Virus record (IMG/VR): IMGVR_UViG_3300034356_001764
Span: 16,204-80,203 of that record
Reading direction: 5' to 3' (one strand)
DNA from: a virus
Length of the DNA stretch: 64,000 nucleotides
The notes beneath the pieces were generated by a model. The model worked only from the letters and a program-made list of their open reading frames with translations. It ran no database searches and was not told where the DNA came from. Below are positions 4,190-34,811 of the stretch, in pieces. The number at the start of each line of letters is the position of its first letter. Position 1 is the stretch's first letter. A program made the position numbers and the translations under genes.

Positions 4190-6493
4190 TTATAGGAAGA
4201 TTGGCCAATCAGTATAGACGTATCCTGTTGTACTACCACCTTTCTTTTTATATTTATTTAAAAGGTATTTTTCAGCAGACTCTTTACTAAATCCTTGAGA
4301 CATCAATTCTTTTAATTCTTCTCCCATTGTTGCTTGTTTTGCTCCTGGATCAACTTGTTTATCAGTAGGAGTATATTCTACACGTCCCCCAACACCTGGT
4401 CTAGTTTGATAGTTAGGATACATTTGATTCAATGCATCTGTCTTCATTTTATTAGTAAGTGCTGTATTGTAAGCTTGTCTCATATTTGCAGCACCCTGTC
4501 TTTTAGCATTTTCAAACTGTTGATTAGCAATAACATTTTTGTCATAAACTCTATTAGCCATTTGCTGATTCATCTGGTTCTCTTGGTTTCTTACACCAAC
4601 TTGATTTGCTTCAAACTGATTAGCAATGTTTACATTCTGATTGTTAATTCTACCAAGTGTATCTGCTGCTGCTCTAGCTCCTTGACCTTGTATCTGAGAT
4701 AACCTTGCATTCAATGCTTGAGGACCTGCAAATGAAGCAGCTGCTTGAGATGCAATATTAGCTTGTTCAGATTGTGCAGCTAGTTCTCTTGTAGGATCTA
4801 AGAATGTAGGTCTTGGTTCTTCAAGATCAACTCTTGCTTCCCATGGCATAAATTTCTTAGCACTCATCATATCACCAAATGCACCCATAGTATTTACAGT
4901 ATCTTGTAACCACCATTCTGGTTCTCTTTGCGCTGCTGGAGTAACTGCTTGTTGTTCTTCACCTGGTTCTTCACAATCTTTACAACTACCATCAGCATTC
5001 ATACCTGGATCATATGTAGTACCATCTGCTCTATCGCATTCACATCTTTCTTTTGGCTTACATGTTTCAGGCATACATTCACCTTTCTCATTCTTCTGAG
5101 CAAACTTTCCTGCAATAGCTACACCTTTATCATCAAGACACGGACATTCTGTTGATACTGGTTCTTTTTTTACTTCTTCTATTGGTTTTACAGGATCTAA
5201 TTGTCTTACACCAAAATAATTATCTACATAGGCATCTTGCAATTGTTCTAGTATTTTAGGATCTTTTAATTGTTCTTCAGTAAATTTACCTGACCCATCT
5301 TTACTCAATGCTTTTAATTTTGCATTCTTCATACCTTTAGCTGTAAGACCATGCGTTGTCCACATATTCTTAATACTTTCAGGATTGTTTTTTAAAGTCC
5401 ACTCATAAATAGCTTTTTGTGCTTGACCTTCTGTCATTTTACCAATACCTGGAATACTACTTTCCCATTGCTTTAAATAATCATTTAAAGATTGTTTACG
5501 TGCACTAAACTTATTTGATGTACCAGTTGGAGTTACATTTCCTTGTTGTGTTTTTGCTTGTTCATAAGGTGTTATAATTCCATCTTGTGCTTGTGGTATA
5601 TAACCTCCATAAGCCATTTCATTTGACTCATAAGGAAATTCAAAGCCTCCCATTGACATTCCATACATTGCCATTGGTTGACCACCATAAGCCATAGGAG
5701 GTTGTTGTTGCATCATTTCCTGAGCAGCCATATCTTGCTCCATAGATTGAGGTTGAGCTATCTGTTCCCCGTTTGGCATTTCCATTGGTATCTCTTCCAT
5801 ACCTTGCATTTCAGGAGATTCCCTCATTTCTTGCTGTGGCATCTGCTGTTGTGGTTGTGGTTTTTGTGGTATTAAGTCTTCTTCAGAAATTCCATTAGAC
5901 TCCATATAAGGTTTTGACAATTCAGGTATACCTTGAGGAAATCCTTTCTTAGACTCTTGAGCTAATGCTAAGGCACCAAGTTTCATGGTGTAATTCTTAA
6001 TCATCATCTCAGCAGTCTTTCTATCCATCTTATCTGAATTAGGATCTTGAAGTATTTTTCTATACCTGTTAAGATCATATTTCTTAGATAAGTCAGCCGG
6101 AGTGTATCCACCTTTCTTAGGATTAGCATTAAACATTTTTAGAATAGTTGGGTCTGAAATCTTCATTGACTTAGTATCACTAAAAATAAAACTATCATCT
6201 GGTAAGTTTAATGGAACACCTCCACTACTGTGACGTGGGCCAGTAATTGTAAAAAATGATGGCATCATACTACCATCAATATTTCCTATTACAGTTTCTC
6301 CACCTTCAGCTTCTAGATTAGCTTCTTCTCTTGGAACTGCAGATATTGTTCTTTTTACCTCAGATGGTTGCTCACCAATATATGCATTGTAATCAGCACC
6401 ACCAAATGCTGGTACATCATTAACCAAACCGCCTCTAACTTGATAGCCTGTTCTAGCTTTTGGTACAGATTTAATTCTTACTCTTCTTAACAT
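4190..6493 (-). CDS. Cargo protein 1-like virion protein (767 aa)
   Basis: N-terminal NLEAEGGE...GPRHSSGGV...FIFSD motif recognised from crAss-like cargo proteins. Q/N/A-rich helical C-terminus and several xxGG motifs. Confidence 0.6.
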   Translation of the reverse strand: MLRRVRIKSVPKARTGYQVRGGLVNDVPAFGGADYNAYIGEQPSEVKRTISAVPREEANLEAEGGETVIGNIDGSMMPSFFTITGPRHSSGGVPLNLPDDSFIFSDTKSMKISDPTILKMFNANPKKGGYTPADLSKKYDLNRYRKILQDPNSDKMDRKTAEMMIKNYTMKLGALALAQESKKGFPQGIPELSKPYMESNGISEEDLIPQKPQPQQQMPQQEMRESPEMQGMEEIPMEMPNGEQIAQPQSMEQDMAAQEMMQQQPPMAYGGQPMAMYGMSMGGFEFPYESNEMAYGGYIPQAQDGIITPYEQAKTQQGNVTPTGTSNKFSARKQSLNDYLKQWESSIPGIGKMTEGQAQKAIYEWTLKNNPESIKNMWTTHGLTAKGMKNAKLKALSKDGSGKFTEEQLKDPKILEQLQDAYVDNYFGVRQLDPVKPIEEVKKEPVSTECPCLDDKGVAIAGKFAQKNEKGECMPETCKPKERCECDRADGTTYDPGMNADGSCKDCEEPGEEQQAVTPAAQREPEWWLQDTVNTMGAFGDMMSAKKFMPWEARVDLEEPRPTFLDPTRELAAQSEQANIASQAAASFAGPQALNARLSQIQGQGARAAADTLGRINNQNVNIANQFEANQVGVRNQENQMNQQMANRVYDKNVIANQQFENAKRQGAANMRQAYNTALTNKMKTDALNQMYPNYQTRPGVGGRVEYTPTDKQVDPGAKQATMGEELKELMSQGFSKESAEKYLLNKYKKKGGSTTGYVYTDWPIFL

Positions 6494-6501
6494 AGCTTAA
6501 A

Positions 6502-9500
6502 TTATAAATATTCAACTTCTCCACCATTAGCAATAAAGTTTGCTAATTCTTCTTCTGTCATATCAACTTCATCCCCTTCTACATAGTCAGGATCTTCATT
6601 AAGATAACTATTTTGACCACCCATTTGTGCAGATCTACTATTCCAAGTTTGACCCATTTGATCTGGTCTATACAAACCAGTATTGGTATCATAGTCACCA
6701 CGGTCTCTACTAGGATCACTTGCATATAGATTATCAGCAGTAAGATTTTTATACATTTCTTTCTCGTTCTTTCTATTCTGCATTCTATCAATAAATCCTA
6801 AAGCTCCTTTAGCAGCTGCATTACCTGTTAACAATGCACCTTGTACTGAAGCATTGTTCATCCCAGCTTTAGTTTTAAAGTCATATGTTACATCACCTTC
6901 TGGCTCATAAACTTTTTGAGTTTGCTGTCTTAAAGCTTGATTTGGATCTATAGTATATTGTTTTGGATCTTGTGATTGATTTCTTGTAGGATTATCAACA
7001 TTCATGAAACTTGTTAAAGATGATTCATCTAAACCTTGAATACCAGGGTTAAGAGATAACATATCAACATCTGTAGTTCCTGCCATTGCTGGATTATTAG
7101 TATATACTACTGGAGATTGAACACCATTCTGAGCAGTAGGTATAAACTTTCTTAGACCACCACCATATTGTTTCTTTATTCCTTTTTGATTAGTTACATA
7201 TTGATTGTAGATTCTATCATATGTTTCAATGTCTTTAAGATTACTAAAATCAGGAACTACCCCTACCTCTTTTGCAAAAGCCATCCTAGCTTCATTTGCA
7301 GGTATATTCCATTTCTTAGCCCAATCACTAACAAACTGATTTACTTTTGAAGACTTATCACTAATTTTATTAAAAGCATCTTCACTCTCATACCAATCAC
7401 CATCTTTCCATATTCCTTCATTCTCAGGAACTGCTCCTGTTTTTTGAGAATCAGATTCTAAATTTGGCATTTGTTTATATCCCCATGGACTTTTTTGAAG
7501 TTGTTGATTTATCATTAGCTCTTCTGGAGATACAAGAAGGTTATTTAATTTATTACTTTGTTTAGGAGCTGTATCATAGTTAGCTTGACTATCAAAATCT
7601 TCTTGTGTAGCAGGCACCTCTTCAAAATATTTTTCATATCTTTTACCAGCCATCAACGGTCTTTGTCTTCCTGCTTGTCTATCACCTCTATCCATTTCTC
7701 TTTGAGATAAAGCCATAGGACCTTTTCCAGGTAGTACTCTTTGTTCATCAGAACCATCTAAACTAATCATTGGTTTAGTTGGATCAGAGCTTTCATTACT
7801 AAAAGTAACTGAATACTTCTTAGGTCTTCCGCTTAATAAACCTGTTTTTTGAACATTGATATTTTTAATCTGTGCATTTTGTCCAAGATAACCAGGAATC
7901 TGTTGTCCAGTAGCATCACGTGCACCCATATATTGAGTACGGTAATTTGTATTTAAATTGGCAGGAATTAAGTTTTTAAACAAACCTCCTCTTTGAAAGT
8001 AAGCATCTGTTACATCTTCTGAGCCTGTGTAATCAATATCAGACTGGTCAATATAAGCAAGTGATGGATCATCATTTCCTCCATAAACAAATCTTTGAAG
8101 ATTACCATACTCATCAGAAAAAGGATCTTGTACAATACCACCCTGTTGGAAAGTTGAACCGCCAAATTTATTTTCTATCATGTCACCACCAAAACCATCA
8201 TTCCAGCTTTCTTCACTTTCCTTACCAGATCTATTTGGTAATTCATTCCAAGGAACATAAATTACACCACCATAATCTTGTGATTGTTCAACAGCAGCAA
8301 AACTTTTTTCAGGAATTATTTTGCCGTTAGCATCTCTTACAATCTGATATCTTGCAGGTTTTACTGTCCCCCAATTTGTTTTATATGTAGATTCAAATGA
8401 AGTAGCTTGTTCACCTTTTTTAGTGTTCCATTGTTTTTCATCACTACCTTCTTCAAATTTTCCAGTATTAGGATTAAATCCATAGTTTTTACTACCTACA
8501 GGTCTTCCCCATTGGTCTTTTTTAACTTGAGGAACTGTTGGTTTTACTTTAGCTTTTGGCTGAATGTAGGGTATAGCATTTTTTTCTAATGCATTTACTC
8601 TACCTTCTACATCTCCAGAAGAAACTTTTTGAAATGAATTTCCTGTACCAGTTGTATCAATGTACCACTGATTATTTTCTTTCTTGTAAATTGCAGTCTT
8701 ACTTGGATATGAGTAAACACCATCTGCACGTTTCTGAACATTAACTTCTTTTTGACCTTTTACTTGATCTTTAACAACTTGTTTTTCTTTTGCTGTTTGA
8801 GAACTATTTACAGTAACCGGAGTTTCAGTTCCAGGAGTTTTAACTTCAGTAGTTGCAACTGTTTCTGTTGTACCATCTGGTTTTACTTCAACTTTTTCCT
8901 CAACCTTAACATCTTTATTAGTTGCCTCATTACCTGGGGTAACAGCAGCTACATCTTTATTAGTTTGACTATTTACATAAACAGCATTATCTTCTACAAT
9001 TTTTCTTGCAGGAGTCTTTTTAGCACCAGTATAACCATAACCATAGAAACCTGGTCCACTACCTGGCATACCACTACCTGGCATAACAGATGGCATTTGC
9101 CCAAAGTTAACTGAGTATTCTTTTGGTCTACCAAATATACCTGAACGTCTTACATCCATAGATTCTATTGGTGGATAACCTTGACCAAAGCCTCCTGGTA
9201 TTCTTGGAACTCTTGGTTCTCTATTGAACAAACCTCTTCTTTCTTGACCCTCTTGATTTCTTCTTCTAAATAATCCACCAAACTGAGCTTCATCAAGCAT
9301 CTCATCATCTTCAGAATAATTCATTGGAGCTTGAGACATCCCCTGTTGCATCATTTGTTGTTGCTGCATCATTTGATCATACTGTTGTTCAGCTTGTTCT
9401 TTAGCAACAGCTATCTGACTTTGATTCTTAAGAGTTCCAATGTAATTATCTAAGATACCTCTTCTTACATTATTTCCAATTGGATCAGATTGATCTGCTT

Positions 9501-10443
9501 TTTTGGTAAGGTCATTAGGATTATTATTTCCTTGATCCCCACCCATTTGTTTTTTAACTAACTTCAATACAGAATTTACATAAGCACTCTTACCTTTTTT
9601 GTAAGCACCACCTTTTCTAAATTCACTCTCATCATAGTTTTCTTCTTGTGGTTCTGAATCATCCATATCCATCATTGGAGAAGAGTCAGGATTCATATTG
9701 CCATATGAAACACCACTATCTTGTGAAGTTTCAGGTGCAGTAAACTCTGGTCTTTGCCAAGCTTCTCCAGTTGCTACATCATAACCTCCACTCATCATGT
9801 CAGACATGTTTGCAGGCAAGTATGCTTCAATTCCTGGAAATACAATTGGATACTGACTTTCTACTTCCGCACCTTCTTGTGCTCTCATGTAGCCACCTCT
9901 CATCATTACTACTTGAGAAGCAACATCAGAATCATCATCTTCTATTTCATCATCTTCATTAGCAACTTCATTTGCCATATCATTATTCATGTCATCACCA
10001 TAGAAGTCTTCTTCAGTTTCTTGAACCGGATTCATTACTGTTTCTTCCTGAGCATCTTCTGGATCTCCTCCTGTAACTTCTTCATCTGATGATTCTTCAG
10101 AATCTTCTTCTTTCTGAGCTTCTGATTGTTCTTCAAGATACGTGTATATCTGATTTACCAAGTTAGTTGCTTCCATTGGATCTTTACCATACACATTCAC
10201 CAACTTAACAACTATCTCTTCTTTTGGTCTTGAGTTACTAATGTCTTGCATTACTAATGACGCAAGCTGATTATCATCAACTTGTTGTGCTTGTCCAGCT
10301 TGCCCTTGACCAGCACCCGGATATGATAATTCTTCTGCACTAGGTGTACCACCCATTTGAGCTTTACGTAAAAACTGGGCAGTCTTATTTAAAAACTGTC
10401 CTTCACCTGTTGGGCTCTTATAGATTCTGACTCTTTTTTTCAT
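6502..10443 (-). CDS. Low-complexity modular virion cargo protein (1313 aa)
   Basis: Acidic and Q/M-rich disordered segments separated by about 12 xxGG motifs; cargo-block location. Confidence 0.55.
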   Translation of the reverse strand: MKKRVRIYKSPTGEGQFLNKTAQFLRKAQMGGTPSAEELSYPGAGQGQAGQAQQVDDNQLASLVMQDISNSRPKEEIVVKLVNVYGKDPMEATNLVNQIYTYLEEQSEAQKEEDSEESSDEEVTGGDPEDAQEETVMNPVQETEEDFYGDDMNNDMANEVANEDDEIEDDDSDVASQVVMMRGGYMRAQEGAEVESQYPIVFPGIEAYLPANMSDMMSGGYDVATGEAWQRPEFTAPETSQDSGVSYGNMNPDSSPMMDMDDSEPQEENYDESEFRKGGAYKKGKSAYVNSVLKLVKKQMGGDQGNNNPNDLTKKADQSDPIGNNVRRGILDNYIGTLKNQSQIAVAKEQAEQQYDQMMQQQQMMQQGMSQAPMNYSEDDEMLDEAQFGGLFRRRNQEGQERRGLFNREPRVPRIPGGFGQGYPPIESMDVRRSGIFGRPKEYSVNFGQMPSVMPGSGMPGSGPGFYGYGYTGAKKTPARKIVEDNAVYVNSQTNKDVAAVTPGNEATNKDVKVEEKVEVKPDGTTETVATTEVKTPGTETPVTVNSSQTAKEKQVVKDQVKGQKEVNVQKRADGVYSYPSKTAIYKKENNQWYIDTTGTGNSFQKVSSGDVEGRVNALEKNAIPYIQPKAKVKPTVPQVKKDQWGRPVGSKNYGFNPNTGKFEEGSDEKQWNTKKGEQATSFESTYKTNWGTVKPARYQIVRDANGKIIPEKSFAAVEQSQDYGGVIYVPWNELPNRSGKESEESWNDGFGGDMIENKFGGSTFQQGGIVQDPFSDEYGNLQRFVYGGNDDPSLAYIDQSDIDYTGSEDVTDAYFQRGGLFKNLIPANLNTNYRTQYMGARDATGQQIPGYLGQNAQIKNINVQKTGLLSGRPKKYSVTFSNESSDPTKPMISLDGSDEQRVLPGKGPMALSQREMDRGDRQAGRQRPLMAGKRYEKYFEEVPATQEDFDSQANYDTAPKQSNKLNNLLVSPEELMINQQLQKSPWGYKQMPNLESDSQKTGAVPENEGIWKDGDWYESEDAFNKISDKSSKVNQFVSDWAKKWNIPANEARMAFAKEVGVVPDFSNLKDIETYDRIYNQYVTNQKGIKKQYGGGLRKFIPTAQNGVQSPVVYTNNPAMAGTTDVDMLSLNPGIQGLDESSLTSFMNVDNPTRNQSQDPKQYTIDPNQALRQQTQKVYEPEGDVTYDFKTKAGMNNASVQGALLTGNAAAKGALGFIDRMQNRKNEKEMYKNLTADNLYASDPSRDRGDYDTNTGLYRPDQMGQTWNSRSAQMGGQNSYLNEDPDYVEGDEVDMTEEELANFIANGGEVEYL

Positions 10444-10499
10444 ATTATATTATATAGTTAATATACTAAATTTTAATTTAACTGTTAAACTTTAAAGAT

Positions 10500-13400
10500 T
10501 TAGTCAATTTCTTCAATTACATAACCATCTTTAATATATCTATTAATCTCTGCTTGTGTAAGATTTGCTACCATCCCTCCTTCTTTAGCTTTAACTGCAC
10601 CCTTTACTAAGGCTTTAGTTCTACTTCCAGACGGATCTTTTATAGGAACATATGTATTACCTGTTGATTTCCCGGTGTTAATATACCATTTACCATTTGA
10701 ATCTTTCTTATAAGTTACTCCAGGTCTTTCAGGATATTTATAAACTGTACTTTGGAGTGTAACTTTCTTAGTATAATCAGGTGCTACAAATGGCTTCAAC
10801 TTATTTGCATCTTTGTATGGATTATAAACAGCAGTAGACTCAGTAGGTACAAGTTTTGAATAAGCAAAATTTGGATTACTCTTTTCATACTCAGCTTGTT
10901 TTTTATTTTTTTCTGCTATGTCTTTACGAACCTGTTCTCTTTGAGCATCCTCACTAGCTTTTTCTCTTGCTGTAATTCCTTTTTGTACTATACTATATTC
11001 TTTTTGTAATTGATTAGTTGAACTTGTATTACCTATTATTTCATTAGCTTGCTTCAATACATTATTACTATAATCTATATCAAAGTTATTAATATATTTT
11101 TGATACTTCTCTCTCTTATACCAATCAGAACCTGCTTGCCAAGACTTAGCTAAAATATAAGATGCAGGTATCTTTCCTTTGTATAGACCAGTCTTAACAT
11201 TAAAGTCTTTATCTTTTTTAAGTTTTTCATAATTGTCCAAAAGAATAATTGCACCCGCTTTAGTCTGTGCTTCAATATCAAATGTTCCAATATCTTTAGG
11301 ATCAACTCCAAGTTTTTCTAACTTTTTACCAAGGGCATTTAATGAACCATCTTTATTTACAAAGTTTAAAGTAGGTTTCATTTGATAATAACCAATACTT
11401 GCTTCATCTCCTTCAAAGGCTCCTTGACCAAGAACATCTTTATAAACAGTAGCTGCAACTTGTTTAGGAATTCTTTTATTTGATTCACCACCTGAACTTT
11501 CATTCTGCATGATTCCACCTACAAGGATCTGTCCTACAAAGTTTGTATCCTCTTGACTATAACCTAGATTTTTAATGTTTCTAACATTGTTATTAATAAC
11601 ACCTGTTGCTTGTTTTTGACGCTCAGTTGCTGTTTTACCTGCTACTAGTTTTAGTTTAGGATCAACTGTGCTATAATATCCTGTGTTCTGTAATCCAGAT
11701 AAGTCAGCATTTTTAAGACTTGGGGATCTTACAATAGATGCAACTTGATAAGTAAATACACTTTTGTCATGATCATCAAGACTTATTGGCTCATCAAGTC
11801 TTTTGATAAAAGCTTTTCCTTTTTCAGAAGCATGCCAAATTAGTGGCGTACCATCTTTATCTTTACCAACTACAAATCCAAGGTGCTCAACATTTTCATT
11901 TTCTAAACCACCTTTTGTTTCTGAAGCAAACTCTCCACTTGTTTTTGTATTCATTCTATTGAGCTGTACATAATCACCAACTTGTAATTTTGCATAAACA
12001 TCTTTAGGAACCTTTGGCATCTTAGCCATATCTCTTTCTGTAGTTTCATAAATAAGATCTCCACCTTTATTAAGAACATCAGATTTATTAAACCAAGCAT
12101 CATTTGCCCATATATCTCCATCAGCTATTTCACCAAGTAAGTTACTCATCTTAACACTTACATTGAATGAACATCCTTTACCTTCAACACAAACTTCTTC
12201 TCCTTCCCCTTTATCAAGATATGGTAAGTAACCTACTCCAAGATTTTTGTTAACCGTATACTTAGTACTTTGTGATTGTTTTTTTGGTTCAATTGTTTTT
12301 ACCTTAGATGGAGGAATACCAGAATTAAATGCATCTAATGCCATCTTTGTTCTGTTACCCATAATACCATCAACTCCATCTCTACTTGGACCTGAAGCTC
12401 CAATGTTATATCCAGCTGCTACTAGTTTCTTTTGAATTGCTTTAACATCACCTGATTGTTCAATCTTTGGCATTGCTATTTTCTCTACTTCTTTCTTAGT
12501 AAGTGTTGGTTGATCTACTACTGGAGTGTTCACTAGGGTAGCTGGTTGCTGAACTGTTGTAGCTACCACAGGTTCAGTAACAACTGGAGGTGCAACAAGA
12601 TCACCTGTAGGCATCATATCAGGTGCTAACATAGGAGTCACAACCGGACTCTGACTTTGTTGCATAGTTGGAACAGTTGGTACACCACCATCTTGAAACT
12701 TAACTTCCTCTATAGTAAACCCACCTTTTCTATAGTACTCTATTTCTTCATCATCAAGATCTAGTTCAATAAAACCACCATCTTCTTCTTGTTGTAAAGC
12801 TTTACCTCCTAATGATTTAGTAGATTTTTTAGGAAGCATTTCATAAATACCTTTCTCATTTTGTTTAGCTAAACCTTGTCTTTCTAAACTTTGCCATGTG
12901 TTTCTTCCTGGAGCTACTCCATTATTTTCAACAAAGGCACCCCATGATCTAACTTTATTTCCTTCTGGTAATGATTCATTTAACTGCTTATAAACTTCTG
13001 TTCCTATACCTTGTCTTTGAAATTTAGGATCAACTCCTATATCCAATGTTTCAAAATCACCACTGGATAATCTATTACCTGAAACTTCACCAACTTTTGT
13101 ATCTCCTTTATAAACCCCAAAAGTCTCCATGTCTAATTCTTGAGATCTTACATTATCAGGTAAAAGTTTTATATTCATATTTTTAGGTGCACTTGTAATT
13201 TTTTTACTAGTTCCAAGTACATCTTCTGCGTAAGAGCCTACTTTACCAAATTTACCAACTTTACCTAACTTACCCAATGAACCAATTCCTGGTAACACAC
13301 CTGCTACATCTAATGTTTTATCTAACCCTGACCAATATTGATTTCCTGTAAGAGGATTTATATTAGTATTTCCTGTACCAAATGCAGAACCTATTCCTGG

Positions 13401-15773
13401 ATTAGCAGACAGTGCAACATCAGCAACTGTATTACCTACTCCTTTAAGTGTACCCATGGGATCTTTTGCAATACGCAATAATGCTGGAGCTCCAGTTAAT
13501 TCTAGCACTGCATCAGTAACTCCCATATTAGCTTCTTTTCTAGTATTAGCTTGATCTACTGCATCCTGATATTGGCCTTTATAACCTTCCTTCATTGTAG
13601 CTTGGTCATACTTACCCCAACCTCTTTCATCATACAGTCTGGCAAAGTCAGAAGTTGATATCTTACCTTCTTGAACCTTTCTTCTAGCACGTTCATAATC
13701 TTGAGCTCCTTGATTATGTTCTTTAACTCCTTGTGTAAATCTTTGAAGTTCTTTTATAGAAAAGTCTTTAGGTTTTAAATCTTGATACCAAAGCTTTCTA
13801 CCTTGAGCAGTATTCATAAGAGCTTTACTCTTATCCATTAACTCTTTCCAGCGTTCTTTATCTGAAGCTTTTGCATAAGCAAATGTTTCCGCTTCATCTT
13901 GAGATTTATCTATAATGGGTTGTTGTGAACCTTCTTGAGCTTGAGGTAGTTCTTCTACTATATAACCACCTTTTCTATACTGTTCAATTTCTTGAGGAGT
14001 TAAATCCATTTCAACATACCCACCATCTTCTTGCATGGCCATCTTGTCATTAACTCCGTATGCCCATCTTTTATATGCAGTGCGGCCTTCTCTTAATGGA
14101 AGACTTGGTATTTCTTCACCACCTTTTTGTGCATGCACTAATCCTTGACCACCACATTTATGACATGTAGTAACATCATCACTACCATCTGCAGCATTCC
14201 ATTTCCAACCACATTTTTTACAGGTTACTTTCTTAGTAAGTAAAGCACCTCCTTTTTGTTCTTTATTTAAAAAAGCTGGTGATACTGATTTATAATGTTC
14301 TGCAAAATATTGGGCATCTGCAGGATTATTAAATCTTATTGCTTCATTAGATTCTGGACCATAATCACCAAGCATTAACTGACCATTCTCATTTTGTATT
14401 TGAGGTACAGCATAATTATCCATACTAGCCATATAGTGAGTACCTGTATTACCATTTTCAAATTGATATGGATTATCAGTAGGGACAACCATTCTTTTTG
14501 CAGCAGGATTGCCAAATTCATTTGCATAAGCAAGCTTTGCTTTCATCATACCACTTGTATAATCTTGCAAATGAGATGGTAAAGGAATATCATATTCTCC
14601 TTCTTCATTATGTGAATCTACTACAGCTTGTCCTTCTGGAGTAGTTTCTCTCCAGTTTCTATACTCATTAAGTTTATTTTGAATTAAATTATAATCATCA
14701 AGTGTCCAACCTTTAGGATTTCCAATTTGATTTTCTATGGCTTTAATTTCTTTTCCCCATTCTTGTGGAGTTGTTGAACCACCAAATTGAAACAGTTGTC
14801 CACTAAATCCAAGTTTATCAATTACAGATTGTTTATTATCAATATGTCTATCAATACCAAGCTCTCTTACTTTAGCTACCTTAGCTTCATCTGAACCCAT
14901 TGCAAAGATTCTATCTTCTGGGATACCTGCATTACGTGCCCTAGTGATCATATCTGGTGTTACTTCTTCTCTAGCAGATATAATATACTTCTGATCACTA
15001 GGTGTATTCATTGCCATTTCCATTCCTGCATCAGTTGTAAGAGTATCATCATAGTCAAATGATACAATACCACCATCTGCGTAGAAACTTGCATTAGGAT
15101 CAAAGATTTTTCTTTTTCTAGATTTAGGTACTTCAAATAAAGGATTCAATGCAAACAATCTATTTGTTGCTTCAAGACTTCTTGAATAAGCTTTTGATTT
15201 AATTCCTTTTGATCCAGTAGGTATTCTTACTTTAGGAGTTTGCCCACCTTTCTTAAAATCTTCAGGTTGCTCAAGCTCTGGTTGAAGTCTGTAATCAGTT
15301 GTTAATTCTTCCCCAGCTTTAATATCTCTTTTTGCATAGACATATCTTTCATTACCTTTTTTAACACTATACATGTTAGGTGTGTCAGAGTGATTATGCA
15401 TCTTTCCAATCTCTCCTACTGGTTGACCATTTCTATGCGCTAAACCTATAAGTTGATTTTTTTTAAAAAAAGTATTTGCAAACAATCCTTTATCAGCTCC
15501 TGCAATTTTTGATTGTTTAACTACTAAATGACTGTTAGCTTTATTACCTCCTTTTTTTAATTCAGGATATTCATCAACATACTTAGCACCCGGAAAATTA
15601 TATTCCTCCTCTGGATGCATCATTACTGGTGAACCAAAATCTGGATAAGCCATGACAGGATATGGAACATTGTCCATGGTTATGTCATTACCTGGAATTC
15701 TAGTTGGTACTCCAGGATGTGCCCACTGACCTCTTGGATCAACAATAATTTTAGATTTAGATTTCTTATTCAT
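10500..15773 (-). CDS. Polyvalent cargo protein: SET, HAD-like, Zn ribbon, GNAT, PG-binding, CHAP/NlpC-like and lysozyme/SLT-like domains (1757 aa)
   Basis: Motifs: GLFA...NHSDTPN...DIKAGEELTTDY (SET); SFDYDDTL...ISAR...HIDN (HAD); CKKC...CHKC; VDPKFQRQGIG (GNAT motif A); VKAIQKKL...DGIMGNRT (PG-binding); GCS...HLGFV...WH; QNESSG...GYYQM. Confidence 0.75.
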   Translation of the reverse strand: MNKKSKSKIIVDPRGQWAHPGVPTRIPGNDITMDNVPYPVMAYPDFGSPVMMHPEEEYNFPGAKYVDEYPELKKGGNKANSHLVVKQSKIAGADKGLFANTFFKKNQLIGLAHRNGQPVGEIGKMHNHSDTPNMYSVKKGNERYVYAKRDIKAGEELTTDYRLQPELEQPEDFKKGGQTPKVRIPTGSKGIKSKAYSRSLEATNRLFALNPLFEVPKSRKRKIFDPNASFYADGGIVSFDYDDTLTTDAGMEMAMNTPSDQKYIISAREEVTPDMITRARNAGIPEDRIFAMGSDEAKVAKVRELGIDRHIDNKQSVIDKLGFSGQLFQFGGSTTPQEWGKEIKAIENQIGNPKGWTLDDYNLIQNKLNEYRNWRETTPEGQAVVDSHNEEGEYDIPLPSHLQDYTSGMMKAKLAYANEFGNPAAKRMVVPTDNPYQFENGNTGTHYMASMDNYAVPQIQNENGQLMLGDYGPESNEAIRFNNPADAQYFAEHYKSVSPAFLNKEQKGGALLTKKVTCKKCGWKWNAADGSDDVTTCHKCGGQGLVHAQKGGEEIPSLPLREGRTAYKRWAYGVNDKMAMQEDGGYVEMDLTPQEIEQYRKGGYIVEELPQAQEGSQQPIIDKSQDEAETFAYAKASDKERWKELMDKSKALMNTAQGRKLWYQDLKPKDFSIKELQRFTQGVKEHNQGAQDYERARRKVQEGKISTSDFARLYDERGWGKYDQATMKEGYKGQYQDAVDQANTRKEANMGVTDAVLELTGAPALLRIAKDPMGTLKGVGNTVADVALSANPGIGSAFGTGNTNINPLTGNQYWSGLDKTLDVAGVLPGIGSLGKLGKVGKFGKVGSYAEDVLGTSKKITSAPKNMNIKLLPDNVRSQELDMETFGVYKGDTKVGEVSGNRLSSGDFETLDIGVDPKFQRQGIGTEVYKQLNESLPEGNKVRSWGAFVENNGVAPGRNTWQSLERQGLAKQNEKGIYEMLPKKSTKSLGGKALQQEEDGGFIELDLDDEEIEYYRKGGFTIEEVKFQDGGVPTVPTMQQSQSPVVTPMLAPDMMPTGDLVAPPVVTEPVVATTVQQPATLVNTPVVDQPTLTKKEVEKIAMPKIEQSGDVKAIQKKLVAAGYNIGASGPSRDGVDGIMGNRTKMALDAFNSGIPPSKVKTIEPKKQSQSTKYTVNKNLGVGYLPYLDKGEGEEVCVEGKGCSFNVSVKMSNLLGEIADGDIWANDAWFNKSDVLNKGGDLIYETTERDMAKMPKVPKDVYAKLQVGDYVQLNRMNTKTSGEFASETKGGLENENVEHLGFVVGKDKDGTPLIWHASEKGKAFIKRLDEPISLDDHDKSVFTYQVASIVRSPSLKNADLSGLQNTGYYSTVDPKLKLVAGKTATERQKQATGVINNNVRNIKNLGYSQEDTNFVGQILVGGIMQNESSGGESNKRIPKQVAATVYKDVLGQGAFEGDEASIGYYQMKPTLNFVNKDGSLNALGKKLEKLGVDPKDIGTFDIEAQTKAGAIILLDNYEKLKKDKDFNVKTGLYKGKIPASYILAKSWQAGSDWYKREKYQKYINNFDIDYSNNVLKQANEIIGNTSSTNQLQKEYSIVQKGITAREKASEDAQREQVRKDIAEKNKKQAEYEKSNPNFAYSKLVPTESTAVYNPYKDANKLKPFVAPDYTKKVTLQSTVYKYPERPGVTYKKDSNGKWYINTGKSTGNTYVPIKDPSGSRTKALVKGAVKAKEGGMVANLTQAEINRYIKDGYVIEEID

Positions 15774-24351: not shown

Positions 24352-24357
24352 AATATT

Positions 24358-26064: not shown

Positions 26065-26097
26065 ACTTCTACTGTTATTATAATATACAAATTATTA

Positions 26098-27894: not shown

Positions 27895-27900
27895 TGCTTT

Positions 27901-28140
27901 TTATTTTGTGAACTTACCTAAGTTCTTATATCTTTCTCTTCCCCATACATCTAATGATACAGGTGCTTTTCCTTCAATTGTTACAGGAGCTTTTCTTGCT
28001 TGTTTTATAACAGGTACTGGAGCTTTACTTGCTCCTGCTGTTTTTCCTAGACAGCTAGTGCATCCTTGAGATCCGTTTGGTAATGTTCTTTTCTGACATG
28101 AGCATGTCATTGCACTACCACAGTTTGAACATTTTGCCAT
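27901..28140 (-). CDS. Small Cys-rich (Zn-finger-like) protein
   Basis: CSNC...CSC...CTSC; in the operon. Confidence 0.55.
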   Translation of the reverse strand: MAKCSNCGSAMTCSCQKRTLPNGSQGCTSCLGKTAGASKAPVPVIKQARKAPVTIEGKAPVSLDVWGRERYKNLGKFTK

Positions 28141-28161
28141 AATTTATTGGTTTTTAATTAG

Positions 28162-28728: not shown

Positions 28729-28739
28729 AATTTTATATT

Positions 28740-28776
28740 AAAAAAAGGGGAGGAGTATGAAACTCAGCTCCCCTTT
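28740..28776 (-). terminator. Intrinsic terminator
   Basis: GGGGAG...CTCCCC stem with T tract on the minus strand after a probably abundant structural gene. Confidence 0.7.
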
Positions 28777-28813
28777 CTAGTTATTAATTAGAATTAATTA
28801 AATACCTAAGACA

Positions 28814-30508: not shown

Positions 30509-30571
30509 TTTTTCTTTTTTTTAATTTATAAACAATACTATAATATAATAAAACTTTTTGAAACTTCCAAA

Positions 30572-31084
30572 TTATTTTAAGAAAAGTAATTTGTATTTTG
30601 TAGAATTAATAGAATCTTTTATAAGATCTAAATTATTTACTATTTCTGAGTATGGCATTTTACCTTGTAGTTTAGTTACCATAGCATAGATATCTCTTAG
30701 GTAAGCAACACCATCTGCAACTGTGTCAAGTGTTCTTGGTGCTACATCTTTACACTGAAGTATTTTTTCAGATACTCCTTGGTAACCTTCCATAAGAGTA
30801 TCTACAAAATCAGGTAATACATCATAAAATTTATTAAGAGCTTTATGAGCAGCATATGATCCTTCTCCTGTTACTTTAAGGTGTAATTTATGAAAACTAT
30901 TTCTTGCATTCATTAATTCCATTGCACAAGCTGCTACCATTGTATCTAAAGAACTTCCACCAACTCCTGAATCTGGAGTAGGTTCAGGTTTAGCTGGTTC
31001 TGACTTAGGCACTATTGGTAATGATTGAGGTCTACTAATATTTGCTGACTCAGGATTTCTTTTTAACATTCTAGGTTTTTCCAT
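30572..31084 (-). CDS. Ferritin/Dps-like protein
   Basis: HKLHL.V.G...YAAHKALNKFYD...D.LME.YQG four-helix motif. Confidence 0.7.
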   Translation of the reverse strand: MEKPRMLKRNPESANISRPQSLPIVPKSEPAKPEPTPDSGVGGSSLDTMVAACAMELMNARNSFHKLHLKVTGEGSYAAHKALNKFYDVLPDFVDTLMEGYQGVSEKILQCKDVAPRTLDTVADGVAYLRDIYAMVTKLQGKMPYSEIVNNLDLIKDSINSTKYKLLFLK

Positions 31085-31089
31085 TATTT

Positions 31090-31788
31090 TTAGTTGTTAC
31101 GTTCAGCAGTTTCTGTTCCTCTAGAAAATTGGTTTCCTGATTCAATATCTCCGGCCAGAATAGCCACAGCCTCATCAATTATTACTTCAATTATATCATC
31201 TTTAAATTCACAGTTTACTTCTACAGTAGAAGCAAGTCCAGTATATGGATCTACACAACCTTGTACTTGAATTTTAATTGGCTGTCTATAGTAAATAAGA
31301 TCAGCTGTTCCAACTTCAAAATCTCCATTAGTGTAGATGTTTACTCCATTGCCTTTTAATGTTGCAAAAGTTTCTGCCCATTCAAAGTTAGGCTGCTTTG
31401 CTTTATCTCTAAGAAGCTGATTAAGATTTCCCTCTTCTGCTAAGTATACAGTCATACGTCTTTTATCACAACAACCTTTTTTAGCAAAAACATCAACTCT
31501 CTTCCATTGTAAATAGTCTGCTGGTATATTCCCCCGGAAATAATACTCCTTATTGATCAAGCCTAAACCATTAGTAACAAGTAATACTTGGAGATCATCC
31601 TTTCTTCTTGTAGACTGTTCATCACCCTCTCTCACAGGATTAATCCCATGAAGCTGTCTTCTAGCCCACTCTACCTGAGCTTTATTAAAGGACTCAACAA
31701 TTTGCCAGCATTCTATGTTGTCATAGTCTTGACTGTCAAGCTTATTAAGCCTTTGCTTCATCTTAACGGTTATAACACTGTTATTCAT
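31090..31788 (-). CDS. Tail ring/head-tail adaptor protein
   Basis: FNKAQ...DDLQVL...PADY...YYRQP...EIIDEAV-type pattern of crAss ring proteins. Confidence 0.6.
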   Translation of the reverse strand: MNNSVITVKMKQRLNKLDSQDYDNIECWQIVESFNKAQVEWARRQLHGINPVREGDEQSTRRKDDLQVLLVTNGLGLINKEYYFRGNIPADYLQWKRVDVFAKKGCCDKRRMTVYLAEEGNLNQLLRDKAKQPNFEWAETFATLKGNGVNIYTNGDFEVGTADLIYYRQPIKIQVQGCVDPYTGLASTVEVNCEFKDDIIEVIIDEAVAILAGDIESGNQFSRGTETAERNN

Positions 31789-31791
31789 ATC

Positions 31792-32016
31792 TTAGTTTCC
31801 TTTTCTTGCTTTAGCCATTGCTTTAAAAGTTTTGGCTAATGCTTTACGTTTTGGTGTACAAGTTGGTTTTGACATGGGAGTGCAAAAACCTTTATGTTTT
31901 GGATTAACAGCATCCTGTATCCAGTTCTTATCTTTTACAGCACCACCTTTTTTATACTGGTTTGTTCCACGGTTTGTCTTAATTATTTGACTAAGACTAG
32001 TATCTCCAGTTGCCAT
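31792..32016 (-). CDS. Small basic protein (YKKGG + WIQ.AVNPKHKG module)
   Basis: Lys-rich; C-terminal module paralogous to 33145-33294. Confidence 0.7.
   Translation of the reverse strand: MATGDTSLSQIIKTNRGTNQYKKGGAVKDKNWIQDAVNPKHKGFCTPMSKPTCTPKRKALAKTFKAMAKARKGN
31814..31848. repeat. Direct repeat copy 1 (35 nt identical to 33158-33192)
   Basis: gccattgctttaaaagttttggctaatgctttacg at both loci, with similarity extending about 75 nt further. Confidence 0.9.
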
Positions 32017-32018
32017 AA

Positions 32019-32363
32019 CTATTTCTTTTTAAGGGAACCGCCTAGTTTTTTAATAACTCCACGGCCTTTAAGAATATCAGCTTTAGTAACTTTACCATCT
32101 TTGTTTAAATCTGGAAAACCACCTTTAGCCATTTTACGTGCCATTACACATCTTCCATTTTCATCTCTAACCATACCACCTTTACAAGAAGATTGTACTG
32201 CACGGTTAGGAGCAAATGCTACTGACCCACCTTTTTTAAGCATGCGTCCTTCATCAGTACGTGGGTTATTACCATACTTAGGCATTCCAACAATTTCTGC
32301 TGATCCACCTTTTTGCATTTTCTTCATTTTTGTGGTACCCCCACATTGCATACATTTTGCCAT
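32019..32363 (-). CDS. Small basic multi-GG protein
   Basis: Six xxGG motifs; EF-hand/dockerin-like FPDLNKDGKVTKADIL module. Confidence 0.7.
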   Translation of the reverse strand: MAKCMQCGGTTKMKKMQKGGSAEIVGMPKYGNNPRTDEGRMLKKGGSVAFAPNRAVQSSCKGGMVRDENGRCVMARKMAKGGFPDLNKDGKVTKADILKGRGVIKKLGGSLKKK

Positions 32364-32375
32364 GATATATAGTTT

Positions 32376-32843
32376 TTAACAATTCCATTTTTTTAGTGAA
32401 AGAGCCTTTCTTGTAGGTCTTCCTTTTTCATCCTTCATAGGCCCAGGCATTCCTGACATTCTAGCACAGAAACTCTTACGTCTCTTAGCATCTTTGCTTC
32501 CAGCTTTAAGCTTTGAAGGTTTAGTAGTTACAGCTGTCTTAAGTTTACTACCAGGATTAGCTGCTCTATAGCTTGCTACACCTTTAGCATTAAGACCTCC
32601 TGTAGGATTCTTACCTTCTTTCCTTGTCCAAGCGGCTGTGCTTCCACCATTTTTCATGGCTTTACCTTTGTATGTAGATTGTCTATCAAAACCTGGATCA
32701 TTTTTTATTCCTCTAGATTGATATGAATTAGGGGGTGTATAATTAAAACCTGGATCATTTTTTTTTTGTTGTTTAAATGTTTTACCCATTTGATTTTTTA
32801 GTAACCAATCAATTTTTCTTGTCCAAGCTGCAGTCTTTGCCAT
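32376..32843 (-). CDS. Basic protein with conserved phage domain (AWTRKEGKNP...RRKSFCARM)
   Basis: Recognisable widespread phage module (DUF6321-like, from memory); alternative start MGKTF at 32789. Confidence 0.65.
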   Translation of the reverse strand: MAKTAAWTRKIDWLLKNQMGKTFKQQKKNDPGFNYTPPNSYQSRGIKNDPGFDRQSTYKGKAMKNGGSTAAWTRKEGKNPTGGLNAKGVASYRAANPGSKLKTAVTTKPSKLKAGSKDAKRRKSFCARMSGMPGPMKDEKGRPTRKALSLKKWNC

Positions 32844-32857
32844 TATTCAATATTTTA

Positions 32858-33142
32858 TTATTGCTTCTCTTTAAGCTTTTTAACCCCAAAGTAAACTCCG
32901 GTTCCTGCAGCTCCTGCTCCAAGAATACCACCTACTACACCAGCACCTTTTTCTTTAAAGTTACTCCAAGCTCTAGCTCTCTTATTCTTTTTCTGGGCAC
33001 GGTTAAAATTACATCCTCCGCGTTGCGCTTCAGGTAGTGAATTCATATTACCTATCATGGCTCCGTTACTAGCTTTCTTTAATTGAGCTTCTTTAACATT
33101 ATTAAAATGTGTAAGCGGATTTACTTTCTTTACTGCTTTCAT
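32858..33142 (-). CDS. Small basic protein with Gly-rich hydrophobic C-terminal helix
   Basis: AQRGG followed by a cationic segment and GAGVVGGILGAGAAGTGVYFGV. Confidence 0.65.
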   Translation of the reverse strand: MKAVKKVNPLTHFNNVKEAQLKKASNGAMIGNMNSLPEAQRGGCNFNRAQKKNKRARAWSNFKEKGAGVVGGILGAGAAGTGVYFGVKKLKEKQ

Positions 33143-33144
33143 AA

Positions 33145-33294
33145 TTATCTTTTTTTTGCCATTGCTTTAAAAGTTTTGGCTAATGCTTTACGCTTTGGTG
33201 TACAAGTAGGTTTAGACATTGGAGTACAGTAACCTTTGTGTTTAGGATTTACTGCTTTTTGAATCCATTTGTCATCCTTCTTTTTAGTTGCCAT
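33145..33294 (-). CDS. 49-aa basic protein (missed by ORF track)
   Basis: MATKKKDDKWIQKAVNPKHKGYCTPMSKPTCTPKRKALAKTFKAMAKKR fills the gap between neighbours with 2-nt spacers; paralogue at 31792. Confidence 0.8.
   Translation of the reverse strand: MATKKKDDKWIQKAVNPKHKGYCTPMSKPTCTPKRKALAKTFKAMAKKR
33158..33192. repeat. Direct repeat copy 2
   Basis: Identical to 31814-31848. Confidence 0.9.
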
Positions 33295-33296
33295 AA

Positions 33297-33635
33297 CTAT
33301 ACTTTTTTAACTCTTCTTCCCATACCTACTCTAGACTTCTCAGCTTTTTTAGCAATTAGTTTAGAAGGTGTAATTTCACTCTTTGTTTTAGGTGTATCTT
33401 TAGATACTCTTCTTGTAGGCCGGCAGTATTCATTTTTACCACCGGCTCCACAAGCTTTACCTGATTTTGTATCTTGCCATTTTTCTGCTTGCCATCTTTT
33501 TAAGTTTGTTCCTTCTTTAGTCTTTCTTACTGTACCTGAACCTTTACGGCATTTGGCAATAGCCTGAGAAGCTCTAGCTGAAGGAAACACAGCATACTGT
33601 GCTTTTACTTTACTATAACAAGCATCTTTAGGCAT
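33297..33635 (-). CDS. Basic conserved phage protein
   Basis: DACYSKVK...PSARAS...KCR and LKRW..EKW...C...YCRP modules; very Lys/Arg-rich. Confidence 0.65.
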   Translation of the reverse strand: MPKDACYSKVKAQYAVFPSARASQAIAKCRKGSGTVRKTKEGTNLKRWQAEKWQDTKSGKACGAGGKNEYCRPTRRVSKDTPKTKSEITPSKLIAKKAEKSRVGMGRRVKKV

Positions 33636-33638
33636 AAT

Positions 33639-34811
33639 TTATTTCTTTTTCATTCTCATCATTCCACCCATTTTAGCTTTAGGTGTAGCTGTTTTAGGAG
33701 CTGCACTAGTACCACCAGTACGTCCTTTAGCAACATTAGATGCAGCAGCTTTTGGATTTACTCCAGACTTAACACCTTTTGATCCTGCAACAGTTTGTTT
33801 TTTAACTGTAGCATTAGGATTTACCATACCACCAGTCTTATAACCTAAAATAGTTTTAGCAGCTGATTTTACTCCATCATAAAAAGATCCTTTTTTTGTG
33901 TAATTAGGATATCTTTTTTCAATAGCATCATCAACTTTTTTTGCTCCTGATCCAATAGCTTTATATGCTTTGTATTCAGGAGTAGCTTTAACTGCTGCTT
34001 TAACTACCTTCTTAGTATTTTTAGCAGAGTCTGTTACACCTTTACTAACACCTTTTGCTACTTGCTTAACACCAGCTTTTACATCTGACATTGCTCCACC
34101 TTTTTGCATTTTTAGACCAGAACCTTGTTTCTTTGCATAACGCATAGTTGCATTAGTTTCTCTTTTAGCTTGTCTTTTTTCTTTAGGTGTCATTGGTGCA
34201 TCAGTCATTCTAGTTGAGAATGGTGTTGGTCCACCTTTTTGAGCCATCATTGGTCTTGCCATTGGTCTGTCCGGACCTGTCATTCTAATTTTACTATCAA
34301 TGTATCCTCTTGTTGAATTTTTTTTAATAGTTCCTTTTGTAGTTTTTACACCACCTTTTTGAAATTCACCAGGAGCACTAGAACCACTTGTTTTATCTTT
34401 AACAGCTTTTACTATGTCAGCTGCAGAACCTGCAGTTTTAGCTACATTGCCTGTAATAGTTGCTGCTTTTTCATAGGCAGTAGGTTCAGTACCAGCTTTA
34501 ATACGGTCTGTCTTTGCAGTTATCTTTGCAAGCTTTTGATCTTGCTTTGCAGATTTTTTGATATCCTTAAAAGAAGCACCACCATCTTGGTATTTAGCTT
34601 TAGTAGTACCACCATATTTCATTTTACCTGATGCTTCCATTTTTGCTTTTTCTTCAGCAGCTTTTTTAGCTTTACGTCTATTTGAAATATTCTTTCCAAT
34701 ACCAGCAGCACCTGCAGCAGCAGCACTAATACCAGCAATGATTTGACTTGCTTTAGCACCTTTTGATCCTTTTACCTCAGACCCAGTCTGATATTTTTTC
34801 ATTGTTTTCAT
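33639..34811 (-). CDS. Lys/Ala-rich multi-GG putative core/DNA-condensing protein (390 aa)
   Basis: Histone H1-like composition; seven xxGG motifs. Confidence 0.65.
   Translation of the reverse strand: MKTMKKYQTGSEVKGSKGAKASQIIAGISAAAAGAAGIGKNISNRRKAKKAAEEKAKMEASGKMKYGGTTKAKYQDGGASFKDIKKSAKQDQKLAKITAKTDRIKAGTEPTAYEKAATITGNVAKTAGSAADIVKAVKDKTSGSSAPGEFQKGGVKTTKGTIKKNSTRGYIDSKIRMTGPDRPMARPMMAQKGGPTPFSTRMTDAPMTPKEKRQAKRETNATMRYAKKQGSGLKMQKGGAMSDVKAGVKQVAKGVSKGVTDSAKNTKKVVKAAVKATPEYKAYKAIGSGAKKVDDAIEKRYPNYTKKGSFYDGVKSAAKTILGYKTGGMVNPNATVKKQTVAGSKGVKSGVNPKAAASNVAKGRTGGTSAAPKTATPKAKMGGMMRMKKK

Follow-up and report, generated by a model that had tools for sequence, protein, structure and literature searches.

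Several viral and bacterial systems cut proteins at short peptides that end in two glycines. Adenain (C5), the adenovirus protease, cleaves the core proteins pVII, pX/Mu and pVI at (M/I/L)xGG↓x (arrow, boundary), and the pS273R protease of African swine fever virus (ASFV) belongs to the same clan as Ulp1/C48. Double-glycine leaders with the consensus LSxxELxxIxGG are cut by the C39 peptidase domain of ABC exporters. Among bacteriophages, the T4-type and phiKZ-type prohead proteases cleave C-terminal to glutamate at similarly short motifs (PMC5694885), and for polyvalent proteins processing into units by a built-in metallopeptidase has been proposed (Iyer et al, 2017, PMC5512222). Here, we describe a Gly-Gly junction peptide in a 64-kb stretch of virus DNA (the window), which comprises bases 16204-80203 of the incomplete 80.2-kb contig of IMG/VR record IMGVR_UViG_3300034356_001764 (the source contig, G000) and derives from a crAss-like phage. 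The peptide recurs at module junctions in three large cargo proteins and in a cassette of small, very basic proteins, and we tentatively read it as a processing signal.

Enrichment and composition of the Gly-Gly peptide

The initial annotation had reported about 40 instances of a Gly-Gly motif, concentrated in eight proteins, namely the cargo proteins of 767, 1313 and 1757 amino acids (aa) and the basic proteins of 390, 155, 114, 94 and 74 aa. Its own pattern, [MFYAK][QKA]xGG, gives 30 matches in these proteins (4,664 aa), against 3.4 +/- 1.8 expected and a maximum of 10 in 1,000 rounds of residue shuffling, and a single match in the 15,029 aa of the remaining 54 open reading frames (ORFs), against 2.6 expected. 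The motif is thus well above chance in the eight proteins, as claimed, while a total near the reported 40 requires a looser pattern, such as [QKR]xGG with 36 matches. Gly-Gly dipeptides overall are mildly enriched (65 against 44 expected), which places the signal in the residues that precede the two glycines.

Because the eight proteins had been picked post hoc, the count was redone on whole proteomes, including those of relatives. The capsid protein matches at least 596 stretches in IMG/VR, of which 80 loci, all at least 90% identical, were retained; they include records of 109-123 kb, five of them rated 97-100% complete by CheckV and two with terminal repeats. With a looser pattern, [MFYAWK][QKRA]xGG, and a greedy set of non-overlapping ORFs that omits the 114-aa and 74-aa proteins, the proteome of the source contig holds 29 sites against 7.8 +/- 2.8 expected. 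Five related genomes (G001-G005, 115-123 kb) hold 39 against 10.2, 34 against 9.8, 35 against 8.4, 20 against 10.8 and 22 against 10.4, with a similar confinement, so that the proteome-wide enrichment over shuffled controls, proposed earlier as a check, is found and is echoed in every relative counted. In the complete relative G003, 37 of 39 sites are accounted for by the basic cassette, four cargo proteins and a single small basic ORF.

The motif was also said to be nearly absent from portal, terminase and muzzle, and this holds: portal, terminase, the 1843-aa muzzle-like protein and a 996-aa protein contain none, nor do the two giant proteins encoded upstream of the window (2131 aa and >3652 aa). 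The exception already noted, MIKGG in the capsid protein, is unchanged in 12 orthologues and for that reason probably belongs to the capsid fold. In several relatives, an additional gene that lies upstream of the head module and outside the main cassette encodes a small basic protein with two motifs (G003 L082:19393-19779; starts of L007, L011, L066 and L068); the window has no gene at the matching place.

The motif instances are a mixed set, the majority of which are one junction peptide, K-[M/F/Y]-[Q/K/A]-x-G-G-[S/T/A]. In the cassette proteins of the 80 loci, Lys fills position -4 in 44% of sites (background 19%) and Met position -3 in 31% (background 4%), followed by Lys, Gln or Ala at -2, Lys at -1, the two glycines and then Ser, Thr or Ala. 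In the large cargo proteins, position -3 is more often Phe, Tyr or Ala, and position -2 is Gln. Two explanations of this composition were rejected: the conserved Met is not an internal start codon, since Phe, Tyr and Ala substitute for it and stand-alone forms never begin with M-x-K-G-G, and AT-hook-like DNA binding fails as a sole explanation, since the motif also occurs in acidic regions of the cargo proteins.

The minority is of two kinds. CMQCGG, SSCKGG and CHKCGG are zinc-knuckle-like, with CxxCGG/CKGG sites in the 114-aa protein and, near residue 541, in the 1757-aa protein. Many cassette ORFs (window 32019-32363; L007-L074) begin with CxxCGG or CKxGCGG, have a second Cys pair further on and resemble small zinc ribbons, so a share of the Gly-Gly count reflects zinc-knuckle geometry. 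YRKGG and EDGG, on the other hand, lie in a turn of a repeated, folded mini-domain of ~27 aa. This mini-domain, GG-[YF]-V-E-x-D-L-T-x-x-E-I-x-x-Y-R-K-G-G-Y-x-V-E-E, is present in three copies in the 1757-aa protein (~584-610, ~999-1025 and the C-terminus), and a related acidic form of ~25 aa, x-L-T-x-x-E-I-x-x-[YF]-[IL]-x-x-G-[GY]-x-[VI]-E-[EY]-[LI], ends two cargo proteins in 6/6 genomes (window 10500-10590 and 6502-6580). Its second Gly is often replaced by Tyr, which marks that glycine as structural. The acidic C-terminal mini-domain may be the true anchoring or ejection signal of the cargo proteins.

Homology breaks at the Gly-Gly junction

We used the 30 aa that follow each motif in 361 distinct basic cassette ORFs from the 80 loci as queries, with random positions as controls. 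Of 1,739 matches, 62% start directly after a Gly-Gly, 24% start at the N-terminus of another ORF and 14% are internal, whereas the corresponding values for the random positions are 4%, 3% and 93%. Homology therefore breaks exactly at Gly-Gly (86% of matches against 7% of controls), and in 87% of the matches that start after a Gly-Gly the upstream sequences are unrelated.

The break can be followed at a single domain, DUF6321, which forms the C-terminal part of the 155-aa protein. Of 120 database homologues of similar length, which belong with the source lineage and whose contigs reach 110-122 kb, ten stand alone (90-94 aa) and begin with M-x(2-6)-TAAWTRK. The remaining 110 are extended, and in 110/110 a Gly-Gly lies 2-5 residues before the anchor (GG↓STPAWTRK), in register with the stand-alone N-termini. 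The N-terminal partners of DUF6321 comprise at least six unrelated modules, each of them joined to it via ...GG. In the 155-aa protein itself, the sequence STAAWTRK after the Gly-Gly echoes the protein's own N-terminus, MAKTAAWTRK. The earlier proposal of interchangeable modules joined by a common signal is strongly supported by these breaks at Gly-Gly, by the many partners of DUF6321 and by a 49-aa stand-alone gene that equals the part of the 74-aa protein following its Gly-Gly.

The cassette that carries these modules reaches from the 339-aa gene to a conserved 232-aa gene and consists of changing basic proteins of 50-567 aa with a Lys plus Arg content of 20-30%. Across 14 relatives with capsid identities of 90% or more, its gene number, size and order vary, yet K-M-x-x-G-G-[STA] is present in every one. 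The 390-aa protein has seven junction motifs (KMKYGG, KYQDGG, EFQKGG, MAQKGG, KMQKGG, GYKTGG and KAKMGG) and the C-terminus ...KAKMGGMMRMKKK; its orthologues are 40-75% identical over parts, against at least 90% for the capsid protein. For the 390-, 114- and 94-aa proteins, matches among the relatives are partial only, with 32-75% identity. The DUF5872 protein has a fixed length of 112 aa in all relatives examined and never contains the motif.

The 1757-aa cargo protein follows the same plan on a larger scale. Its joints end at residues 76, 177, 235, 332, 509, 552, 603, 1000, 1018 and 1030, and its Pfam domains lie between them: SET (residues 115-161, E 1.5e-9, or 3.2e-12 for the segment alone) is flanked by the joints at 76 and 177, GNAT (882-950, 6.5e-5) by those at 603 and 1000, and PG_binding_1 (1107-1149, 1.8e-4) follows the joint at 1030. 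That the motifs of this protein fall between domains, as first noted, is true wherever it can be tested, including a block that runs from joint to joint (178-235). Homology with the relatives is mosaic, with one block that spans exactly residues 178-235 and another, 403-505, that has its counterpart in a different G003 protein, at residue 1771. Behind the PG_binding_1 domain, residues ~1190-1340 (window ~11700-12200; GCSFN...HLGFVVG...IWHAS) resemble, by eye, an NlpC/P60-type peptidase of the papain fold; Pfam gives no support (best AmiA-like, E 0.2).

The DUF6321 boundary recurs in another phage group with a different junction. A second set of 120 longer homologues (273-705 aa) consists of proteins of T4-like cyanomyoviruses. 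The domain anchor is present in 111 of them, and in 111/111 hydrophobic-x-Glu stands at the same boundary (FGLNE↓ASAAWQRK, FMIE↓AS..., KIEE↓V...). This Glu-type boundary is confined to the T4-like set, as the source lineage is of the Gly-Gly type in 110/110. Glu-type sites also divide other modules of the cyanophage proteins (280-700 aa), including DUF5872. Prochlorococcus phage P-RSM4 encodes a Peptidase_S77 (PF03420, E 1e-32), and its 365-aa multi-module protein (L119:3980-5077) is located between the terminase genes gp16 and gp17; some relatives of this protein are labelled structural or virion by their depositors. By analogy with the known prohead proteases, the multi-module basic proteins of T4-like cyanophages are probably unrecognised substrates of a gp21-type prohead protease. 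The parallel offers indirect support for cutting in the source lineage, by way of a cyanophage cleavage that we likewise infer.

Marine virus AG-345-E15, tried as a relative of the source lineage, was rejected because it is a T4-like fragment. In a T4-like replication gene setting it encodes a 454-aa basic protein (L001:19176-20540) with three V-D-E-A junctions, the last one immediately before DUF6321.

Possible roles of the junction peptide

What does the junction peptide do? We favor a processing (cleavage) signal at module junctions and give this reading a probability of about 0.45. The internal contents of the head would be encoded in two ways, as a fast-shuffling cassette of basic mini-proteins by the capsid gene and as three multi-domain cargo proteins behind the muzzle-like gene, both of which would be chains of portable modules. 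An endopeptidase with a narrow S2/S1 pocket would cut after the second Gly, during or after head assembly. Such cutting would free basic peptides of ~20-90 aa that travel with the DNA, as well as separate effector domains (SET, GNAT, cell-wall enzymes), and would trim off short leaders and tails. Cutting is favored over a junction that stays intact by the register with stand-alone N-termini and by the T4-like parallel.

The choice offered by the initial annotation, a maturation cleavage site or a capsid-loading tag, can be narrowed on one side. The single-module basic proteins (112 aa and 49 aa) and the giant RNA polymerase (RNAP)-like proteins are free of the motif, and in crAss001 the homologues of these giants are virion components (PMC10172136). 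This makes a universal loading tag unlikely, and the cleavage alternative has the indirect backing of the T4-like parallel.

Several results weigh against cutting. The initial annotation had proposed to look for a clan CE, C39 or prohead protease in the rest of the genome, and the corresponding models (clan CE, C39, S77, S78) detect none in the source contig or in four to five near-complete relatives. At E <= 1 there was no match to adenain (PF00770) in five near-complete relatives; to Ulp1/C48 (PF02902) in G000, G001, G002, G003 and G005, where a very divergent domain could escape; to C39 (PF03412) in the source contig and four near-complete relatives, with positive controls matched; to T4-type S77 (PF03420) in G000-G003 and G005; or to HK97-type S78 (PF04586) in the source contig and four near-complete relatives, the gene between portal and capsid encoding an acidic helical protein. 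Pfam searches found no peptidase among the other 48 ORFs of the window and, among 63 ORFs of the remainder of G003, only DUF2201_N (with a VWA domain) and PhageMetallopep, two putative metallopeptidases that both lie in the early/replication part. Since no named protease is detectable and the cutting is something we infer, the term polyprotein, applied to these proteins at first, should be read conditionally. The sites themselves raise further objections. Many motifs lie 8-12 aa apart or 4-12 aa from a terminus, so that cutting there would yield tiny products of little apparent use; at several cargo sites the Gly-Gly is followed by Tyr, Phe or Leu, and some Gly-Gly pairs are structural. In crAss001 gp45, a similar joint, A425-F-G427-G428-W, lies inside the chain that the cryo-EM model is reported to cover (425-552).

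The sole virion-linked enzyme candidate is a domain with an HExWH pattern, metallopeptidase-like by motif only, in the giant RNAP-like protein that is encoded upstream of the window. The domain has four invariant residues (H167, E168, W170 and H171) and three nearly invariant ones (E204, E205 and E209), with E-E-x-L-A-E-x-F-R ~35 residues after H-E-x-W-H. It occurs in 849 representative protein clusters, mostly of proteins of 3,000-4,900 aa, shows weak similarity to residues 2005-2203 in the C-terminal part of crAss001 gp47, and its pattern fits the self-processing metallopeptidase proposed for polyvalent proteins. Its further analysis adds to the case against cutting: the domain has no Pfam match, its profile finds nothing among PDB sequences at E <= 10, and its AlphaFold2 (AF2) model (16-row alignment, predicted local distance difference test score (pLDDT) 63.6) is all-helical and has no Foldseek match in the PDB at E <= 0.001. 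A wide VIA-align search with the same model returned generic helical matches only (residues 1-60, Z < 7) and no zincin-like fold. As the domain is also found in crAss001, which has no basic cassette, it is not specific for the motif. A host enzyme is a possible cutter as well. The most far-reaching version of the processing reading, in which a widespread aquatic crAss-like lineage would mature its head contents in an adenovirus-like manner, with shuffled polyproteins cut by an unrecognised Gly-Gly endopeptidase, perhaps the HExWH domain, into basic DNA-coating peptides of 20-90 aa and free effector enzymes, and with Gly-Gly and Glu as a lineage-specific 'grammar' by which the same cargo modules could pass from one phage family to another, seems to us unlikely.

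The same objections speak for an uncut seam, hinge or docking handle. Here the peptide would be a linear motif in flexible linkers that might bind some component of head or tail, for example the inside of the capsid, the tail barrel or the acidic scaffold-like protein, or that lets the chain unfold and thread through portal and tail at ejection. Residues 425-552 of crAss001 gp45 are reported to form a modelled domain on the portal (PMC10172136), and as this range contains F426-G427-G428-W429, the joint AFGGW (425-429) appears intact in the particle. The protease models without match point the same way, as do the dense arrays, in which motifs spaced by 8-12 aa, and a motif at most 12 aa from the C-terminus in 33/138 proteins, fit a multivalent handle better than they fit cutting. 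Minimal leaders such as MATVKKVMKSGG before DUF6321 contribute the motif alone, and a hydrophobic residue followed by Gly-Gly is typical of peptide-in-groove binding. A partner may be at hand in the 423-aa acidic protein, a likely scaffold, which by its charge is the obvious counterpart of the very basic cassette proteins before DNA entry. A complex prediction with the first 39 aa of the 114-aa protein, the capsid protein and this scaffold-like protein scored 0.00 with controls absent, and weighs for neither side. However, the motif is missing from single-module basic proteins and from the giants, whose crAss001 homologues are packaged, and is thus unneeded for general loading, and neither the register with stand-alone N-termini nor the Glu sites of the T4-like proteins are predicted by a handle. 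We consider an uncut junction a real possibility, to be held somewhat tentatively. Cutting and a handle role could also both be true, as with the T4 targeting sequences, which bind first and are removed afterwards.

Could the peptide be a by-product of shuffling at the DNA level? Direct repeats of 21-29 nt (D4, D6 and D13; 69-95% identity) encode K-M-Q-K-G-G-S, with 21-nt copies in the 114-aa gene (D6, D13). The codons are mildly biased, GGT being used for the first Gly in 71% of motifs (background 57%, p = 1.6e-5) and AAA for Lys at -1 in 92% (background 76%). Such microhomology at the motif could drive module shuffling. Yet a recombination scar or linker without a dedicated reader, persisting through shuffling by the microhomology of AAA ATG NNN AAA GGT GGN, is improbable despite the repeats, the bias and the precise homology breaks, because all four Gly codons are used with the second Gly unbiased (p = 0.17), the Met/Phe/Tyr and Gln/Lys/Ala positions vary in codon and keep the kind of residue, the motif recurs with different codons in acidic cargo contexts, and a plain linker needs no conserved hydrophobic residue three places before Gly-Gly. 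Varied codons with kept residue kinds indicate that selection acts on the peptide.

Genomic setting and comparison with known systems

The features discussed here are listed in Table 1. Virion genes are almost all on the minus strand of the window. Terminase, portal and major head protein all match PHROG families and follow the crAss gene order; Pfam models of crAss-type tail ring proteins match as well (CrAss_Ring_2, 1.3e-22; CrAss_Ring_1, 2.2e-6), and the giant protein whose gene continues beyond the contig end, upstream of the window, matches crAss001 gp50 and gp47. Together, these matches identify the source as a crAss-like phage, with the full Crassvirales virion module of ring proteins, portal, terminase and capsid in crAss order. 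The lineage was not found in the GenBank phage collection, in which tblastn also gave no match to the 390-aa and 767-aa proteins, and around the capsid gene of a more distant relative, Leptolyngbya phage Lbo-JY46 (capsid 28% identical), the motif is not enriched. PHROG has no family for the three cargo proteins or for most of the basic proteins, and Pfam found nothing relevant in the giant proteins or in the 996-aa and 1843-aa proteins.

Table 1. Positions of the features in the window, except where the source contig is named
Feature	Position	Strand	Remarks
767-aa cargo protein	4190..6493	-	starts MLRRVRIKSVP...; PMAYGG, EMAYGG and YKKKGG sites; gene-order place of crAss001 gp45 (C1)
1313-aa cargo protein	6502..10443	-	starts MKKRVRIYKSP...; leader ends KAQMGG at residue 32; at least 8 junction motifs
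1757-aa polyvalent cargo protein	10500..15773	-	Pfam SET, GNAT, PG_binding_1
74-aa basic protein	31792..32016	-	25-aa leader ending QYKKGG, then the module that also exists as the 49-aa gene
114-aa basic protein	32019..32363	-	junction motifs KMQKGG, MLKKGG, KMAKGG, IKKLGG; also CMQCGG, SSCKGG
155-aa basic protein	32376..32843	-	N-terminal DPGF-repeat module, AMKNGG joint, DUF6321 (PF19846, residues 77-153)
94-aa basic protein	32858..33142	-	one motif (EAQRGG); Gly/Ala-rich hydrophobic C-terminal stretch
49-aa stand-alone gene	33145..33294	-	paralogous to what follows the GG in the 74-aa protein (translations; direct repeat D1, 135 nt, 83% identity)
112-aa basic protein	33297..33635	-	DUF5872 (PF19197); single module, no junction motif
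390-aa very basic protein	33639..34811	-	K 19%, G 12%; first gene of the hypervariable cassette
339-aa conserved protein	34824..35843	-	between capsid gene and cassette; no motif; weakly similar to crAss001 gp33
Major head (capsid) protein	35932-37548		PHROG/Pfam models
423-aa acidic protein	37578..38849	-	D+E 21%, helix-rich; between portal and capsid genes; no motif
Portal	38940-41690		PHROG/Pfam models
Terminase large subunit	41696-43900		PHROG/Pfam models
Motif-encoding repeats	32215-32321, 34091-34247, 34346-34366
HExWH domain in giant RNAP-like protein	source contig (G000) 8078-9037 (locus L090)	-	upstream of the window

Two conserved genes flank the capsid gene. In the 339-aa protein, H48, C54, C134 and H299 are invariant; its AF2 model (pLDDT 45.5) is unusable, and an ESM Atlas search gave unnamed viral clusters only. 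The 423-aa protein has two His and no Cys, no Pfam match and a basic C-terminal tail (...RQNNNLFKRF). An acidic, helical product with a basic tail suggests a scaffold, and the protein is probably a scaffolding protein and not a protease.

The N-termini of the 767-aa and 1313-aa proteins share M-x-[KR]-R-V-R-I-[KY]-x-x-P (window 6460-6493 and 10410-10443), which recurs on their counterparts in five relatives. This common start, followed by the first Gly-Gly joint (residues 22 and 32), may be a shared N-terminal signal. The 1313-aa protein ends ...MTEEELANFIANGGEVEYL, a tail that is kept in all relatives.

With a shared junction peptide, there is a concrete and testable point of entry into how crAss-like phages load and release several megadaltons of cargo. 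The peptide predicts exact N-termini, flags the internal cargo set in uncultured phages, and explains the rapid rebuilding of the cassette from portable parts. Multi-domain injected proteins have precedents, and so has the processing of proteins inside the head. New here are the quantification of homology breaks at junctions of the basic cassette and the finding that T4-like cyanophages have a Glu-type boundary at the matching place. In agreement with the initial annotation, which knew of no such description for crAss-like phages, we found no publication that describes the seam, or Gly-Gly junctions, cargo processing or Gly-Gly cleavage of internal proteins in these phages; nor do the motif, cleavage, a protease or processing come up in the crAss001 structural atlas (Bayfield et al, 2023, PMC10172136).

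Within the crAss-like phages, the closest likeness is to the cargo proteins C1 and C2 of crAss001 (gp45 and gp46), whose genes have the same position behind a muzzle-like gene and ahead of the RNAP-like giants. Like the proteins described here, gp45 ends in K-A-K-G-G followed by a basic tail, and it contains five sites of the aromatic-A-x-GG type (SAYGG, KAFGG, NAFGG, FAYGG and KAKGG) against 1.1 expected, a number reached in 15/2,000 shuffles. Its Gly-Gly sites include those at residues 209, 263, 332, 373, 562 and 828. The likeness is one of gene order and end motifs alone, as the 767-aa protein has no BLASTP match to gp45 at 1e-3 and no Pfam family at E <= 0.01, and crAss001 has no basic cassette that carries the motif.

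In adenovirus, as in the source lineage, strongly basic core proteins that associate with DNA carry multiple sites in which Gly-Gly is preceded by a hydrophobic residue and followed by a small one, and some of these sites set off short terminal peptides, which in adenovirus are removed. Unlike in adenovirus, however, the hydrophobic residue is at P5 instead of P4, near-complete relatives have no C5/C48 match, the host is bacterial and the capsid is of the HK97-type lineage. In C39 substrates, too, a leader ends in Gly-Gly and a mature module follows, but their consensus differs from K-M-x-K-G-G, and the sites here are internal and repeated, in contrast to a single N-terminal leader.

The 1757-aa protein joins SET, GNAT and cell-wall binding domains within the virion gene block, the makeup that defines the polyvalent proteins, and the conserved HExxH domain in the neighbouring giant protein is a candidate for the peptidase of such a system. 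The description of that class contains no shared junction motif, and the words 'glycine' and 'linker' lead to nothing in its text (PMC5512222).

Finally, the internal proteins of T4 with gp21 and the A/S-x-E system of phiKZ and SPN3US resemble the source lineage in that head-internal proteins have leaders or are multi-part precursors with a short common motif at each junction (PMC5694885). The source lineage differs in a motif that ends in Gly-Gly instead of Glu and in having no detected Peptidase_S77 homologue, and cutting in it is a proposal. Nonetheless, T4-like cyanophages use the same two modules, DUF5872 and DUF6321, and place the junction at the same residue. The same modules with the same border and a different junction motif suggest that cargo modules pass between unrelated phage families and are refitted with the local processing code.

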